DNA of 63,584 bases, counting the filler, from Acidimicrobiia bacterium (GTDB lineage: Bacteria; Actinomycetota; Acidimicrobiia; Spongiisociales; JAENVV01), in the NCBI GenBank assembly GCA_041577335.1. It is 6 parts of 4 records of this genome, joined end to end, with 100 filler letters (N's around TTAATTAATTAA, not from the genome) between each part and the next. Parts side by side here need not be neighbours in the genome. Positions count along the whole stretch, not along the records: positions 21,739 to 26,914 come from JBFGJH010000009.1; 5 more parts are not named here. One strand, 5' to 3'. Position numbers and translations under genes: made by a program. Positions 20,818-26,914 of this stretch are shown piece after piece. The notes beneath the pieces are model-generated. The model had not been told where the DNA came from. It saw nothing but the letters and a program-made list of their open reading frames with translations, and searched no databases. Each line of letters starts with the position of its first letter. The stretch's first letter is position 1.

Positions 20818-21638
20818 TCAGACCTCCACCGGGTCGGCCTTGCCGATAACCACGATCCCGCTGTCGGTGACTGTGAATCGCTCCCGGTCTCGGTCGAGAT
20901 CGATGCCGATCTTGGCGCCCGCAGGCACCTCGACGTTCTTGTCGATGATCGCTCGCTTCACCTGGGCGCCCCGGCCGATATCGACACCGGAGAAGATGAT
21001 CGAGTCGTGGACCTCCGAATAGGAGTTGACCCGGACTTGGGGCGAGATCACTGATGTGTGGACCGAGCCTCCCGAGATGATGGCTCCGGCGCTGACGAGT
21101 GAGTTCACAGCCTCCCCGCGACGGTCGGCCGCATCGTGGACGAACTTGGCGGGCGGACGAGGGAAGTTCCATGTGAAGATCGGCCATTCCGAGTTATACA
21201 GATCAAACTGGGGATCAATGGATGTCAGGTCCATGCTCGAGTCGAAGTAGGCGTCGATCGAGCCGACGTCACGCCAATAGCCGCGCTCACGTTCGCTCTG
21301 GCCGGGAACGTCGTTATCTGCGAAGTCGTACCCATACGCCACTCCCTCGTCGACCAGAGCGGGCACGATGTTGCCTCCCATGTCGTGCGCGGTCTCGGCT
21401 TCCTGGTCGGCCAGAATGGCTCGGCGCAGCACGTCCGTCCGGAAGATGTAGTTGCCCATCGAGGCCAAGGCAATGTCGGGGTGGCCCGCCAGGGCGGGAG
21501 GGTCGTCGGGCTTTTCGAGAAACTGGCTGATCTTCCTGTCGGCACTCATGTCGAGAACACCGAAGGCAGATGCCTCGGCGCGGGGAACGCGAATGGCGGC
21601 GACGGTCACCCCGGCGCCAGACTCCAGGTGCTGATCGA
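20818..21638 (-). CDS. glgC: Glucose-1-phosphate adenylyltransferase (5' truncated)
   Basis: FLEKP, ASMGNYIF, YWRDVG, PPAKFV, left-handed beta-helix tail AIIDKNV. Confidence 0.95.
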
Positions 21639-21738
21639 NNNNNNNNNNNNNNNNNNNNNNNNNNNNNNNNNNNNNNNNNNNNTTAATTAATTAANNNNNN
21701 NNNNNNNNNNNNNNNNNNNNNNNNNNNNNNNNNNNNNN
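21639..21738. other. Artificial contig linker
   Basis: N-run/TTAATTAATTAA/N-run. Confidence 0.99.
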
Positions 21739-21904
21739 CGGTTTGGCCGGGTGTCGTGTCTGATGGGCTGTTGCCGGTTTGGCCGGGTGCGGTGTCTGAT
21801 GGGCTGTTGCCGGTTTGGCCGGGTGTCGTGTCTGATGGGCTGTTGCCGGTTTGGCCGGGTGCGGTGTCTGATGGGCTGTTGCCGGTTTGGCCGGGTGCGG
21901 TGTC
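21739..21904 (-). repeat. 36-bp coding tandem repeat (~4.5 copies, continues into gap)
   Basis: Unit encodes DT(A/T)PGQTGNSPS with alternating A/T variants; no spacers. Confidence 0.95.
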
Positions 21905-22330
21905 GTTGACATCGTCGGGATGGGGGATCTCGAGACCGACGAACTCGAGTGTGTCGGCAGCGGCGGCTTGCAGCGGGTCCGGGAGCACGCCGGCCGCCGC
22001 GGCAATTCCGGCGCTCGCAGTTGTCATCGCCATCGCGCCGACGGCAACCTTGAAGAACACGCCGGTGGCCAGCGACGAAATAACGGCAGTCCTCCTGGCC
22101 CAAAAGGAAGGCTGAACGATCACGTCGGTGGAAGTGGCGGCAGCGGCGGGTGGAGCGGCGAGGGCAGCGTCGGCTGCAGCAGCGATCTGGATGCTCCGCA
22201 GTACCTCGCTCGGGGGAGCGGTGAGTGCGTCCCGGAGGCCGGTTATCGCCGAGAAGAGCGCTGGGTCGCTCATGACCGATTCCCAGAACACACCGTCGAG
22301 GGGGTCATCGCTGAGGTTGAAGTCTGCCAT
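21739..22330 (-). CDS. Putative anti-sigma-like single-pass membrane protein B with 12-aa tandem-repeat tail (3' truncated)
   Basis: MADFNLSDDP.. N-terminus, hydrophobic Ala/Gly segment, AGVLPDPLQAAA, then repeats; paralog of 22790-23692. Confidence 0.75.
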
Positions 22331-22337
22331 CACGGTC

Positions 22338-22368
22338 GTTACCGGCGATGGCGAGAGATTGGTTACGG
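22338..22368 (-). promoter_or_regulatory. ECF-type promoter motif copy B
   Basis: CCGTAACCAA-N14-CGGTAAC, 7 nt before ATG 22330. Confidence 0.75.
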
Positions 22369-22549
22369 GCTGGACGGGATTTCTCGGCGGAGCAATACGA
22401 TGCCCGGTATCTCGTCGTTGGGCGCCGTGCACTGAGGTCCACGATCGAGGCAGCCGACGGGAACCGGCTGATCCCCTATGTGCTCAGAGTGCCGACGTCC
22501 AGGACCGCAATCGGCGCCGACAATAGAAGCCAACCGATCCATTGACGCG

Positions 22550-22579
22550 AAAAGGAGGCGGGTAGGTCGTCCGCCTCCT
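22550..22579 (-). terminator. Intrinsic terminator
   Basis: AGGAGGCGG-ACGACCTAC-CCGCCTCCTTTT. Confidence 0.75.
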
Positions 22580-22629
22580 CCCCGCAAGGGGGTCTTGCGT
22601 GCCGCTGATGAATCAACTCACGCACCATC
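22550..22629 (-). ncRNA. Candidate ~80-nt structured small RNA
   Basis: Begins 8 nt after promoter copy C; three hairpins, last followed by UUUU. Confidence 0.6.
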
Positions 22630-22636
22630 CAACCGG

Positions 22637-22667
22637 GTAACCGTTCATTGTCCCCGCTTGGTTACGG
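22637..22667 (-). promoter_or_regulatory. ECF-type promoter motif copy C
   Basis: CCGTAACCAA-N14-CGGTTAC in intergenic DNA. Confidence 0.72.
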
Positions 22668-22681
22668 GCGACTTCGCCCGT
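22664..22681. terminator. Inverted repeat, possible terminator of paralog A transcript
   Basis: ACGGGCGA-CT-TCGCCCGT, overlapping the -35 box of copy C; no U-tract. Confidence 0.4.
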
Positions 22682-22789
22682 GGGTCGTGGCGGGTCGAAA
22701 TCGGTCTGAAGCGGGAGAAGGCGACCGCTGGTCGCCTTCTCCTCGGGTGATGTTTCACCCGATCCCTGGTCTCATGGACATGTCAGAAG

Positions 22790-23692
22790 TTACTGGTCGT
22801 CGCCGCCCTGGTCGTCATCGGCGCCAGCGATGCCTTCGTCGTCGCCGCCCTGGTCGTCATCGGCGCCACCGTTGCCTTCGTCGTCGCCGCCCTGGTCGTC
22901 GTCGGCGCCGCCGTCGTCGTCGTCGTTGGGGGCGGTGGTTGTGGCGGGCTCTTCGTCGCCCCGGTCGTCGTCGTCCTCGTCGTCGTTGGGGGTGGTGGTT
23001 GTGGCGGGCTCTTCGTCGCCCTGGTCGTCGTCGTCCTCGTCGTCGGGGGTGGTGGCTGGGGTGGACTGGTCGTCAGACTGTTGGTCATCGTCATCCTCGT
23101 CATTGGGGCCGGTGGTCGTGATGGAAGGTTCGTCGTGTCCCTGGTCGTCGTCGTCTTCGACATCAGACATCGGGCTGTTCGTTGTCGGCTCATCGCCGGT
23201 CGCGGTTGTCGTGACAGTCGCGGGGACGACAACAGGGCCATCGAGCTCGTCGTCGATGGGCTCCTCGAGATCGTCCGGGTGAGGGATCTTGAGGCCGATG
23301 AATTGGAGCGTATCGGCAGCCGCCGCCTGGGCCGGGCCGGGGAGCATGCCTGCGGCTGCGGCAACTCCTCCGCCGGCCGTTGTCAATGCCAACGCGCCGA
23401 CGGCGACCTTGAAGAAGACACCTGTTGCGAGGGAGGAGACGATGGCCGTTCTCCGAGCCCAGAAAGAGGGTCGACCAACAATGAGGTCAGCCGATGCAGC
23501 TCCTACCACTGGCGTGGCCGCCGCGGCGGCATCGGCGGCCGCTGCGATCTGGATGCTCCGGAGCGCCTCCCTCGGAGGGGCAGAGAGTGCGTCCCGGAGG
23601 CCGGTTATCGCCGAGAAGAGGGCTGGGTCGCTCATGACCGATTCCCAGAACACACCGTCGAGGGGGTCATCGCTGAGGTTGAAGTCTGCCAT
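22790..23692 (-). CDS. Putative anti-sigma-like single-pass membrane protein A with Asp-rich repeat tail (300 aa)
   Basis: Immediately downstream of ECF sigma; N-domain, hydrophobic segment, AGMLPGPAQAAA, long D/E/T-rich tail. Confidence 0.8.
   Translation of the reverse strand: MADFNLSDDPLDGVFWESVMSDPALFSAITGLRDALSAPPREALRSIQIAAAADAAAAATPVVGAASADLIVGRPSFWARRTAIVSSLATGVFFKVAVGALALTTAGGGVAAAAGMLPGPAQAAAADTLQFIGLKIPHPDDLEEPIDDELDGPVVVPATVTTTATGDEPTTNSPMSDVEDDDDQGHDEPSITTTGPNDEDDDDQQSDDQSTPATTPDDEDDDDQGDEEPATTTTPNDDEDDDDRGDEEPATTTAPNDDDDGGADDDQGGDDEGNGGADDDQGGDDEGIAGADDDQGGDDQ
22793..23110 (-). repeat. Degenerate coding tandem repeats (39-bp and 60-bp units)
   Basis: GADDDQGGDDEG(N/I) about x3 and DDEDDDD(Q/R)GDEEPATTT(T/A)PN about x2-3. 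Confidence 0.85.
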
Positions 23693-23699
23693 CGCCTTC

Positions 23700-23730
23700 G
23701 TAACCGGAGCCCGCCCGCGGTTGGTTACGG
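23700..23730 (-). promoter_or_regulatory. ECF-type promoter motif copy A
   Basis: CCGTAACCAA-N14-CGGTTAC, 7 nt before ATG 23692; -35 box contains the sigma gene TAA stop. Confidence 0.75.
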
Positions 23731-24261
23731 ACTCGTGGGTATTTTCCTGCGAAGCGAGGTGATCGCTCGGTGCTGGAGTTGTTTGATGGCGTTGGCGTTC
23801 TTGTCCATGATGGCTGCCGTTTCCTCCAGGCTCAGGCCCGCAATCACCCGAAGGGCCAAGACTTCCCGCTGCTCGTCGGTGAGCACCTCCAACATCTCCA
23901 TGGCGGCGTCGAGACTCATGTTTTCGAACGCGCCATGCTCGGCCGAAGCGACGGCGGGGTGGTGGACCTCCCGCAGCTCCTGCTCCGGTCGGCGACCCCG
24001 CCTCCTCCGTTCGTCGATGACCCGATTGTGGGCGATCAGGAAGAGCCAGGATCGGAATTCGGATTCTCCGCCCTCGAAAGTGCCGACGTTCCGGGCAACC
24101 TGCAACAGCACGTCGCCGAGAAGGCCCTCGGGGTCCACAGCGCCACGCGAGCGCAAGTATCCGAGCACCCGGCCGGCATAGGCGTCGTGAAGGCGCGACC
24201 AAGCCCAGTCCGCACCCGCCTGAGCGGCGTGCAAGACTCCCTCGAATTCGTGGAGTTGCAT
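23725..24261 (-). CDS. ECF sigma-70 factor
   Basis: Region 2 FRSWLFLIAHNRVIDERRR; region 4 LTDEQREVLALR..GLSLEETAAIMDKNANAIKQLQHRA. Confidence 0.95.
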   Translation of the reverse strand: MQLHEFEGVLHAAQAGADWAWSRLHDAYAGRVLGYLRSRGAVDPEGLLGDVLLQVARNVGTFEGGESEFRSWLFLIAHNRVIDERRRRGRRPEQELREVHHPAVASAEHGAFENMSLDAAMEMLEVLTDEQREVLALRVIAGLSLEETAAIMDKNANAIKQLQHRAITSLRRKIPTSP

Positions 24262-24386
24262 ATGTCTCCGTCGGTATGAATCGGGCCGGACTTTAATGTT
24301 CCTGCTCCGCCCACTTGCCTAGGGTCACAACGGAATAGCTCGAACGGCTTACAGCGATGCCCATCCGCTCCACCGAGGGAGACCCA

Positions 24387-24797
24387 GTGAGAGATACAGA
24401 GGCGAGGGAACGGCTGACCACGGCGCGGGTGGCACGGCTCGCCACGGTGGATCGAGCCGGTCGGCCCCACCTGGTTCCCATTGTGTTCGCGCTTTCTGGC
24501 GAGACCATCGTCAGCGCCGTGGACTTCAAGCCCAAACGTACGAAAGCGCTGAAAAGGCTGTCCAACATTGGGGCCAATCCGCGCGTTTCGGTGCTTGTCG
24601 ACGAATACGACGAGGAGTGGTCGAGATTGTGGTGGGTCCGGGTTGACGGTTCGGCTCAGGTGCTCCCCGCCGCGGACGCCGAGGCGGGGCTGGCATCGCT
24701 GGTGGAGAAGTACCCGCAGTACCATTCGTCGGCCTTGGACGGCCCCGTGATCGTGATCACCATCGACAAGGTGGTGGGATGGTCTGGCTCTGACTAG
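24387..24797 (+). CDS. PPOX-class probable F420-dependent oxidoreductase (Rv0121c-like)
   Basis: ARLATV..PHLVPIVFA, AVDFKPK, NPRVSVLVDEYDEEWSRLWWVRVDG. Confidence 0.88.
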   Translation: MRDTEARERLTTARVARLATVDRAGRPHLVPIVFALSGETIVSAVDFKPKRTKALKRLSNIGANPRVSVLVDEYDEEWSRLWWVRVDGSAQVLPAADAEAGLASLVEKYPQYHSSALDGPVIVITIDKVVGWSGSD

Positions 24798-26047
24798 TCG
24801 TCGGTCGCAAGGAGACGCCGGCGTCCGAACGCCCACGGCCGCGCCGGATCGGCCAGGAGCGCCTGGTAGACGCTGATCGCTGCTCGGTCGAATGCCACGG
24901 CCGACCCAGCCATGTAGAGCCGCCAGGTACGGAAGATCCTTTCGTTTGCTGCACCTATCGCTGCGTCGGCGTTCGCTTCGAGGTTCTCTACCCAATGACG
25001 GAGAGTCAGCGTGTAGCTCTGTCGAATCGACTCGAGATCTCGCAGCTCCCATCCTGCCCGCTCTGCTTCGGCCAAGCTCAGCTCGATGGGATGCAGCTCA
25101 CCGTCAGGAAACACATAAGTGTTGACGAAGGTCGGTCGATTGCGAAGATGCCGAGTGCGGTCTCGGGTTGTGATCCCGTGGTTGAGGGCGAGGCCCCCAG
25201 GAGCGAGGAGGCCGCGTAGCTGGCGGAAATAGGTTCCGAGTCTGGCTTTGCCCACGTGTTCGAACATGCCTATCGAGGAGATCTTGTCGAAAGTGCCTGT
25301 GACTTCTCGGTAGTCCCGGACAACGAATTCGCAGCGGTCCGCGAGTTTGCGCTCGACAGCCCATGCGGTGGCGTAGGCGGCTTGTTCGTCGCTCAGCGTG
25401 ATGCCCGTCACGGAGCAGCCATAGTGCTCCGCAGCGTGGAGACCGAGCGCCCCCCATCCGCAACCAACGTCGAGTAGCCGCTCGCCGGGACGGAGGTCGA
25501 GCTTGCGGCAGATGAGGTCGAGTTTCCGTCGCTGGGCCTTGTCGAGCGGCTCGGTTGGGTCGAGGAAGTAGGCGCACGAATAGACCATGGAAGGGTCGAG
25601 GAAGGTGGCGAAGAACTCGTTGCCCGTGTCATAGTGATACGAGATGGCGCCGCGATCGCGGCGAACCGAGTGGGGAAGTCCACGCATTGCCGGCCGGGCG
25701 GGTCGTGGCGGCCGGGTGTCTGATGGCAGGCTCCGCAGGGCTCGCATCAGCCGAAGCCGTTGTCGCACAGTCGGGCCCGGATTCTGGAGCGTGGCGGCAA
25801 ACTCCAGCACCGGCAGTATCTCGCCTTCCAGGTCGATATCGCCGTAGAGGTAGGCCTCGCCCGCACTGAGGTCGTTGGGGGGCAGCAGCATTGATCGCAG
25901 CGCCCCAGGATGGTTCAACACGATCGTCGAGGGGGCGTGAGATGGTCCCCAGGATTCACCGGTCCAGGCTCGGGCCTTGGGAGGGGGAGACGTGCTGATG
26001 CGGCACAGCAGGTCATAGATAGACTGTGAGGCCTCCAGTGCACCCAT
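24794..26047 (-). CDS. cfa: Cyclopropane-fatty-acyl-phospholipid synthase family methyltransferase
   Basis: ISYHYD, MVYSCAYF, LDVGCGWG, SIGMFEHVG, YVFPDGEL. Confidence 0.9.
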   Translation of the reverse strand: MGALEASQSIYDLLCRISTSPPPKARAWTGESWGPSHAPSTIVLNHPGALRSMLLPPNDLSAGEAYLYGDIDLEGEILPVLEFAATLQNPGPTVRQRLRLMRALRSLPSDTRPPRPARPAMRGLPHSVRRDRGAISYHYDTGNEFFATFLDPSMVYSCAYFLDPTEPLDKAQRRKLDLICRKLDLRPGERLLDVGCGWGALGLHAAEHYGCSVTGITLSDEQAAYATAWAVERKLADRCEFVVRDYREVTGTFDKISSIGMFEHVGKARLGTYFRQLRGLLAPGGLALNHGITTRDRTRHLRNRPTFVNTYVFPDGELHPIELSLAEAERAGWELRDLESIRQSYTLTLRHWVENLEANADAAIGAANERIFRTWRLYMAGSAVAFDRAAISVYQALLADPARPWAFGRRRLLATDD

Positions 26048-26112
26048 GATCTGCAATGGTACGCGATGTCGGGTTGAGGCGTGACGGTGCCACGCCTCTG
26101 CCACTCTCCCAG

Positions 26113-26141: not shown

Positions 26142-26914
26142 ATGTACGCAGAGCTCCATTGTCACACGAACTTCTCGTTCCTCGACGGTGCCTCGCATCC
26201 CGAAGTGTTGGTAGAACAAGCAGCTGAGCATGGCTATGAGGCCTTGGCCGTGACCGATCATCATGGCTTCTATGGGGCAGTGCGTTTTTCGGAAGCTGCC
26301 AAAGCGATCGGCATGCCCGCGGTCTACGGGACCGAGATCGGGCTGTCGATGGATCTCACAACGGCCGCCGCGGATCCGTTCCGTCGAGCAGAGTTGCGTG
26401 ATCAGGAGCGACAGTCGGCCGACCGTAAGGGAAGGCGAGGGCGCTCAACGAGCATGCACGGCACCAAGCCGACAACGACCCCACCAACCAATCACCTGGT
26501 TTTGCTAGCTCCCGATCCCGTCGGTTATGCCGCACTCAGCAAGCTCGTGTCGACGGCGCAATTTCGAGGCGAAAAGGACCGACCCGTCTATCTCTGGGAG
26601 GACGTGGCTCAGGCAAGCGCCGAGTCGCAGCTCATTGCCCTCACGGGGTGCTGGCAGGGGGCCGTCCCTCGTGCTGCCCAGCGGGGTGACCTGGCCACAG
26701 CCATGCGCGAAGCCACTCAGCTCCGCGACGTGTTCGGCGATCGTTTGCGAGTCGAAATCTGGCATCACCGTATGCCAGAAGATGACCTTCGCAATGATGT
26801 GCTTGCCGAGGTGGCAGCCCGGCTGTCCATTCCCACAGTTGCCACCAACAACGTTCATTACGACGAACCAGTCGAAGCCGACCTATCCGAGGTCATGGCG
26901 GCAATTGCCGGACG
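26142..26914 (+). CDS. dnaE2: Error-prone DNA polymerase DnaE2/ImuC, PHP domain (3' truncated)
   Basis: YAELHCHTNFSFLDGASHPE, LAVTDH, VATNNVHY; SOS box upstream. Confidence 0.88.

Follow-up and report, generated by a model that had tools for sequence, protein, structure and literature searches.

Why would a single sigma factor locus carry the same promoter-like motif three times, twice ahead of paralogous membrane proteins and once ahead of a short, hairpin-rich unit? The question arises in the genome of an Acidimicrobiia bacterium (GCA_041577335.1; 3,375,592 bases; G000 below), in a minus-strand module at the start of contig C9, which forms part of the stretch of DNA analyzed here (the window: 63,584 nucleotides [nt], a chain of contig pieces). 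We consider it likely that the module is a switch built on a BldN/SigD-like extracytoplasmic function (ECF) sigma factor, one whose regulon is small and local and whose brake is duplicated, and that it comprises the following parts:

23725..24261, minus strand: ECF sigma factor, BldN/ShbA/SigD-like, 178 amino acids (aa), with Pfam sigma-70 regions 2 and 4.
23700..23730, minus strand: predicted promoter copy 1, overlapping the sigma stop codon; predicted start 23693; its position matches that in 80 of 84 related loci.
22637..22667, minus strand: predicted promoter copy 2; predicted start 22630; the top matrix score of the genome (25.6), in a position kept in the sister species (G001).
22338..22368, minus strand: predicted promoter copy 3; predicted start 22331.
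22790..23692, minus strand: putative anti-sigma paralog 1, 300 aa, with a three-helix head (residues 10-58), one membrane segment, and an Asp/Glu-rich tail (41% Asp + Glu).
21739..22330, minus strand: putative anti-sigma paralog 2, with the same head and membrane segment, continuing on contig C67.

An earlier note on this DNA had described three motif copies with conserved boxes and unrelated spacers, and all three are indeed exact matches (minus strand, 23729-23700, 22666-22637, and 22367-22338, with an extra C preceding each) whose spacers are unrelated in sequence. It had also placed two copies 7 nt before the start codons of paralogous single-pass proteins: copies 1 and 3 stop 7 nt short of the paralog ATGs at 23692 and 22330, and each protein has one hydrophobic segment, beginning near residue 82-83. 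(Transcription start sites are inferred via the pyrimidine-purine rule.) Because copies 1 and 3 lie in a duplicated unit, the three are not three independent inventions. The note had proposed scanning both the genome and related Acidimicrobiia for the motif; genome-wide, the strict form occurs three times, every time at the sigma locus. At up to two mismatches, the window holds eight matches against 0.35 expected, with three of the five extra rows being near-palindromic sites reread on the opposite strand. A genome-wide matrix scan yields 25 sites scoring ≥13, compared with 22 to 38 in shuffles, such that these sites, being no commoner than by chance, indicate no regulon beyond the locus. Two individual sites were rejected as further sigma targets: C33:25959 (score 22.6) is inside an opposite-strand gene, and C11:42518 (score 15.6) is within background.

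Comparison with relatives makes it most likely that the motif is the promoter of the adjacent sigma factor. Across 84 related loci (80 regions chosen among 150 listed of 206 matches, plus six further loci, minus two duplicates), a variant of the form CGTA(A/C/T)C, 17 nt, CG(G/A/T)T(T/A)AC sits at the sigma 3′ end in 80, with a start codon 9 nt past it in 59 of these and 6 to 9 nt past it in 68. Extra copies number 53, in 45 of the 80 loci, versus one or two in shuffles of the same 622 kb, and thus promoter repetition is normal for this clade. The genes behind the extra copies encode the sigma factor itself, exported proteins, and TadE-like or HD-GYP-like proteins (labels read from translations), and the targets of the clade promoter are largely surface or exported proteins. 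The third base of the −10 box agrees with that of the sigma-end copy in 51 of the 53 extra copies, and it tracks sigma residue 79: G occurs with His, Asn, or Ser (42/42), A with Arg (29/29), and T with Arg (9/10). Residue 79 aligns with Asn80 of RpoE, the numbering offset presumably reflecting three tag residues. A contact of Asn80 with position −11 is reported in the available part of PMC7776599. Conserved position, base agreement, and residue tracking together support the earlier suggestion that the motif is the cognate promoter of this sigma factor. The same note had likened its −35 box to those of BldN and SigD promoters, and the accessible portions of two sources give related promoters: the ShbA promoter is CGTAAC-N16-CGATGA (PMC12019637), and that of Corynebacterium SigD, which controls rsdA and not sigD, has GTAAC and GAT (PMC6338062). 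Separately, in the sister species a gene for a secreted protein (L122) lies behind a third promoter copy; the homolog of that gene in the genome under study (contig C15 near 48298) has no such copy in the 330 nt upstream and has a WhiG-like site, read by eye.

The sigma factor has the layout of ECF (group IV) factors, with sigma2 and sigma4 only in ~180 aa (TIGR02937, 68.5 bits; cutoff, 42.9). Its top NCBIfam match is the BldN family TIGR02952 at 107.2 bits, under the cutoff of 206.45, and its closest solved structures are BldN (6DXO) and ShbA (9ISN). Set against the group descriptions in the available part of the supplement of PMC7826278, the protein has no N-terminal extension (the open frame is 197 codons for the 178-aa sigma) and no hem gene context was seen, its neighbors being an F420 PPOX protein and a cyclopropane synthase-like gene (both extension and context are features of ECF121); the sigma2 cysteine pair of ECF40 is absent from a protein without any cysteine; and, for ECF123, a single-pass protein at +1 is present and the succinate dehydrogenase context (a feature of some subgroups only) was not seen among the neighbors. 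For an RsdA-like anti-sigma at +1, Pfam gave no match, and the atlas offers no more than a lead, an RsdA_SigD_bd cluster at 0.81. Since the defining features of ECF121 and ECF40 are lacking, we file the protein as BldN/SigD-like and assign it to no numbered ECF group. Of 399 genomes examined in the order, 162 contain relatives (E value ≤1e-32), and the sigma of the sister species is 61% identical. (These two comparisons, along with the G001 paralog comparison and the 93-genome paralog count given below, include the unpublished genome G036, on which nothing else rests; single-sequence collection scans that gave one and eight sigma loci were superseded by whole-genome searches.) At three loci (L107, L136, and L141), gene order is reversed, with the promoter-bearing anti-sigma gene upstream of the sigma gene.

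Do the paralogs restrain this sigma factor? The complex model of sigma with residues 1-78 of paralog 1 scores 0.87, whereas the best of three controls scores 0.01; the mark applied is reached by 116 of 157 solved pairs and by 2 of 215 mismatched pairs. Runs agree in ≥81% of contacts, and the partner has a predicted local distance difference test (pLDDT) value of ≥73. In the model, the head forms helices at residues 10-21, 23-37, and 42-58, and the interface spans sigma2 and sigma4, the most confident pairs setting helix 3 (residues 48-56) on sigma2. The available part of PMC6101532 describes RsbN in like terms, as a three-helix head that touches both sigma domains and places helix 3 on sigma2, and the paralog heads thus model as RsbN-like (class III) anti-sigmas. 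Searches of Pfam, NCBIfam, PDB sequences, Foldseek, and VIA-align (best Z, 4.1) returned no family or fold for the head, blanks that carry no weight, and no sequence or fold match to RsbN; DUF5667 matches weakly in 6 of 80 relatives and in none of the window proteins. The tails are another matter. Following its membrane segment, paralog 2 bears 12-residue Thr/Pro/Gly/Ser repeats and a Gly/Asn-rich end, and no sensing or folded domain was found in the low-complexity tails by Pfam, composition, or repeat analysis. Hence, of the earlier proposal of two alternative sensors/anti-sigmas, the anti-sigma half gains support from the modeled head, while the label of sensor is unproven for tails that are unrelated and low in complexity. 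The paralog family is large (5072 profile matches, 820 at E ≤1e-10); acidic and repeat tails are both common across it and vary freely, even within one genus (L084 versus L093).

What, then, switches on the sigma gene? A matrix scan found no cognate motif copy ahead of it, and a site of another type lies there instead:

24270..24295, minus strand: candidate WhiG/sigma-28-type promoter of the sigma gene, TAAA, 16 nt, and a one-mismatch GCCGA box.

This site, read from 24295 to 24270, fits the WhiG2 target pattern (T(A/C)AA-N16-GCCGA, ≤1 mismatch in positions 1-2, within 200 nt of a start) set out in the available parts of a preprint (bioRxiv 10.64898/2026.01.14.699351) and of PMC8325347; the preprint's table of WhiG2 targets may already list such ECF genes. 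A similar motif, by a pattern written after the sequences had been seen, precedes 14 of 82 related sigma genes and 4 of 481 control windows. The genome encodes a WhiG homolog above cutoff, and WhiG is present in all five genomes tested. With no cognate site and a candidate WhiG-type promoter before the sigma gene, the module is probably not self-contained, contrary to how it had first been described. Genome-wide there are 29 strict WhiG-type sites, against 6 to 9 in mononucleotide shuffles, a count that suggests a sizeable WhiG regulon.

The remaining motif copy precedes the short hairpin-rich unit that the note had pointed out:

22543..22630, minus strand: candidate ~88-nt noncoding RNA, with a hairpin at 22624-22596 that has an internal loop, then a 15-bp terminator-like hairpin at 22585-22547.

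The unit folds into its two hairpins with a z-score of −3.56 (0/200 shuffles were as stable); promoter box and hairpins are present, and the terminator scan made no terminator call. In both this genome and G001 the layout runs terminator, promoter, bulged hairpin, long second hairpin, and, of 54 near-locus extra promoters, only the two in these genomes are followed by units that reach z ≤−3. We judge the case for a functional small RNA to be evenly balanced. No conserved seed sequence emerged from the G000/G001 alignment or the covariance search, and a single-sequence covariance model (R2) found nothing at E <0.09 in 21 family genomes, G001 included; a previous model (R1) was discarded, as its structure was misaligned and it mainly picked up the promoter boxes. 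Rfam holds no credible match for the unit or for seven related loci, a target search by exact 12- to 14-mers and duplex energies, with no control used, gave nothing interpretable, and among public runs no RNA run is listed as holding the locus. A 50-codon frame from 22628 was rejected as a gene. The only ATG frame crosses the hairpin and is frameshifted near its end in sequencing run X7.

Only somewhat less probable is that the unit is a remnant, in which promoter, leader, and terminator have outlived the gene for a secreted protein that they once served, or else an attenuated second promoter of paralog 2. Four f10 loci (L039, L043, L045, and L082) have a promoter at the same position that drives a secreted protein; genus g69 shows a promoter, a structured leader of 100 to 370 nt, and a secreted-protein gene in four of five genomes, with G198 keeping promoter and leader but only the tail of the gene; and a leftover would account for the absence of sequence conservation between G000 and G001 and of covariance matches in the 21 family genomes. 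Against it, both species keep near-perfect promoter boxes and the two-hairpin layout despite the modest identity of their sigma factors, and stable folds behind near-locus extra promoters are confined to these two units. Moreover, the second hairpin also has a duplicate after paralog 2, which lacks a promoter and has decayed (−18.2 kcal/mol, compared with −28.5 kcal/mol in the unit). The two changes listed inside the unit in run X7 (one low-depth contig) keep the fold. In genus g69, at L148, L151, L153, L156, and L115 (positions 1530-1700, promoter strand), a distant promoter copy is followed by a long and very stable hairpin leader (z to −5.7) ahead of a Ser/Asp-rich secreted protein, three of the leaders share an internal-loop word, and none matches Rfam; a cis-regulatory RNA is possible. 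In G210 (L125 1530-1653), an orphan promoter copy precedes three hairpins that reach the contig end, possibly another short RNA.

As for the second paralog, comparison of the sequences indicates that it is a local tandem duplicate, the duplicated unit extending from promoter through downstream hairpins:

22713..22763, minus strand: two terminator-like hairpins after paralog 1, duplicated after paralog 2 (fold z, −4.84).
23585..23693, minus strand: putative gene-conversion tract in paralog 1 (codons 1-36), from nucleotide comparison with paralog 2.
22223..22331, minus strand: putative gene-conversion tract in paralog 2, a 109-nt collapsed contig at raised depth in run X2.

The hairpins after paralog 1 share 84% identity over 67 nt with the 3′ region of paralog 2 on C67, and the last hairpin of the candidate RNA unit shares 70% over 46 nt (E value, 0.02) with its copy after paralog 2; the second copy of the unit lacks ~128 nt that, in the original, include promoter 2 and the first RNA hairpin. 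The proteins are identical at all 36 of residues 1-36 and at 73 of 98 in residues 37-135, with four differences within residues 1-58. At the nucleotide level, 1 of 108 positions differs in codons 1-36, as opposed to 85 of 294 downstream (Fisher P = 2e-12), whereas divergence between paralog 1 and its L022 ortholog is even (21/108 and 54/297), which argues for gene conversion over helices 1 and 2. In run X7, one contig of low depth covers the beginning of paralog 1 and shows 29 differences in 251 nt, versus 1.6 to 3% elsewhere; these would suit an unconverted paralog 1, although few of their positions are given. In a quick tree, the two paralogs and the L022 protein form a group that leaves out the single G001 protein. 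A subfamily profile matched 93 of 401 genomes, of which six have adjacent pairs (G000, G210, G110, G111, G114, and G115), a lower bound in view of fragmented assemblies and the 10 candidates scored per genome. The quick tree places our pair, the G210 pair, and the G110/G111/G114/G115 pairs in three separate starred clades, suggesting that tandem pairs arose at least three times. The G210 pair has a promoter ahead of each paralog and the same tail order as G000, acidic and then PGQ/Gly-rich; in G110, G111, G114, and G115, the first paralog is coupled to sigma, and reading by eye places a separate promoter ahead of the second. Two of these loci hold further genes: a small gene pair with a motif that we take to be Fic/Doc-like is inserted between the paralogs of G114 (L128 3100-3950), and a third promoter-led gene, whose N terminus resembles the family membrane segment, follows the pair in G110 (L127 after 1950).

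Paralog 2 could instead be a redundant dosage copy, its tail set apart by fast low-complexity drift and its conversion neutral, which we regard as rather unlikely. Tails do vary freely across the family, most genomes are single-copy, and it is general knowledge that adjacent duplicates convert without selection. Yet both frames are intact, with 42 synonymous versus 25 nonsynonymous codon differences in residues 37-135; the boxes of promoter 3 have been kept while its spacer diverged; and the unrelated G210 pair has the same tail order, and the f10 pairs have been kept across two genera. Far less probable is that a dimeric transcription factor uses the motif as its operator: the sequence GTAACC...GGTTAC forms an inverted repeat, and all three copies match the opposite strand at one or two mismatches, but the right box is of the CGA or CGT type in 39 of 80 relatives, where symmetry is lost, and the fixed 17-nt spacing, the distance to the start codon, and the likeness to ShbA and SigD promoters belong to a promoter. 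Least credible is an assembly artifact as the origin of the duplication or of the identical 109-nt stretch, even though a draft genome with a contig break inside paralog 2 makes it conceivable. Contigs from runs X1 and X2 (two studies, the source possibly being either one) extend over the two paralogs and the middle unit with zero to two differences, the collapsed X2 contig has a depth of 7.7 compared with 4.3 to 4.7 beside it, and X7, from a third study, holds a diverged version of both paralogs, albeit with no listed piece spanning the locus.

The break itself falls within a 36-nt tandem repeat of paralog 2: contig C9 stops inside this repeat, which overlaps the end of contig C67, where the gene is completed; the assembly therefore does not fix the repeat count. 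Downstream on C67 is a convergent quinone-oxidoreductase-like gene (label read from the translation). The sigma locus of G001 has the same neighbors. On the other side, 24357-26104 of the window holds an F420-dependent PPOX gene (TIGR03668, above cutoff) and a cyclopropane synthase-like gene, syntenic in G001, followed at 26142-26914 by the start of an error-prone DNA polymerase-like gene that is cut by the window linker. Positions 21639-21738 are a linker of N's, and the gene at 20818-21609 is on contig C6 and hence no neighbor of the module.

Several observations weigh against the switch as proposed. The promoter pattern and matrix were written after inspecting the very loci in which they were counted, and the covariation of residue 79 is not significant by an independent-pairs test (two independent pairs on starred branches, P = 1; kinship was taken from a quick sigma tree). 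The complex was modeled with the head of paralog 1 only, and, because the like complex RsbN-BldN has already been solved, its pass may reflect that likeness. The WhiG-type motif precedes only 14 of the 82 sigma genes. Alignment of the G000 and G001 RNA sequences is no better than that of shuffles (215/1000 as good), and genus g69 has folds of equal stability behind this promoter that serve as leaders to genes for secreted proteins. Finally, because the sister species carries a single paralog, a second one is dispensable at the genus level.

With these reservations, the switch would operate as follows. A WhiG-type sigma would transcribe the ECF gene, and free ECF sigma would fire the three promoters, giving near-leaderless mRNAs of both paralogs together with the short RNA. 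Each paralog would clamp sigma at the membrane through its RsbN-like three-helix head, a negative feedback, and cutting of the membrane proteins, by analogy with RsdA and Rip1, would release it. If both heads bind the same sigma, full release would require removal of both pools. As for the outer tails, they probably either give the two proteins distinct cues for stability or cleavage or themselves constitute the surface product, the latter because the other targets in the clade are mostly exported proteins. A wider view, which we hold only tentatively and think doubtful as a whole, is that class III anti-sigmas are a large family outside Streptomyces and that several lineages run a cassette system of converted heads and exchanged tails, with a two-input gate and a small-RNA arm, downstream of WhiG; in Streptomyces development, the order of WhiG and ECF sigma is the reverse. 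A family of 5072 matches that models like RsbN would widen the class beyond that genus, near-identical heads with unrelated tails amount to a natural experiment on whether the tail sets the signal, and the clade promoter with its variants now makes local regulons predictable for uncultured sediment actinobacteria.

How much of this is familiar? The nearest system is BldN-RsbN of Streptomyces (ECF121, class III), which shares the top family and structure match of the sigma factor, a single-pass anti-sigma encoded next door and itself a sigma target, a three-helix head on both sigma domains (here modeled), and targets that are largely surface or exported; the present module differs in having no N-terminal pro-extension, no hem context, no sequence match to RsbN, a −10 box of CGGT(T/A)AC, and two paralogs rather than one per genome. 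RsbN is reported, in the available part of PMC6101532, to be limited to Streptomyces, with an unknown release signal. SigD-RsdA of Corynebacterium and Mycobacterium and ShbA (ECF40) share the −35 GTAAC, and Corynebacterium SigD likewise transcribes rsdA, and not sigD, from its own promoter; here, in contrast, there is no sigma2 cysteine pair, the −10 box is CGGT and not CGAT, and RsdA gives no Pfam match. RsiA1 and RsiA2, the NepR-type anti-sigmas of Sinorhizobium meliloti RpoE2, are soluble partner-switching proteins of another domain class. As one ECF sigma with two paralogous anti-sigma genes they are a precedent (available part of PMC8103513), from which tandem membrane proteins with a converted head and swapped tails depart. 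The same source, in the part available, gives MicA, RybB, and MicL as RpoE-dependent small RNAs, a precedent for a small-RNA arm of an ECF regulon; the one proposed here is a candidate only, with no family match and no target found. The earlier note did not recognize the architecture from described systems, yet sigma-dependent anti-sigma promoters have been described (SigD-RsdA and BldN-RsbN), extra copies occur in 45 of 80 loci, and tandem pairs occur in 6 of 93 genomes; in light of the published SigD and ShbA relatives and the clade counts, a repeated cognate promoter at a sigma locus is ordinary. A literature search, with most subscription papers outside it, found no report of the clade or the RNA, nor any of membrane anti-sigmas in tandem whose heads are converted. 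The basic circuit is thus textbook and would work like BldN-RsbN and SigD-RsdA; what appears new is the tandem of membrane brakes with matched heads and unrelated tails.

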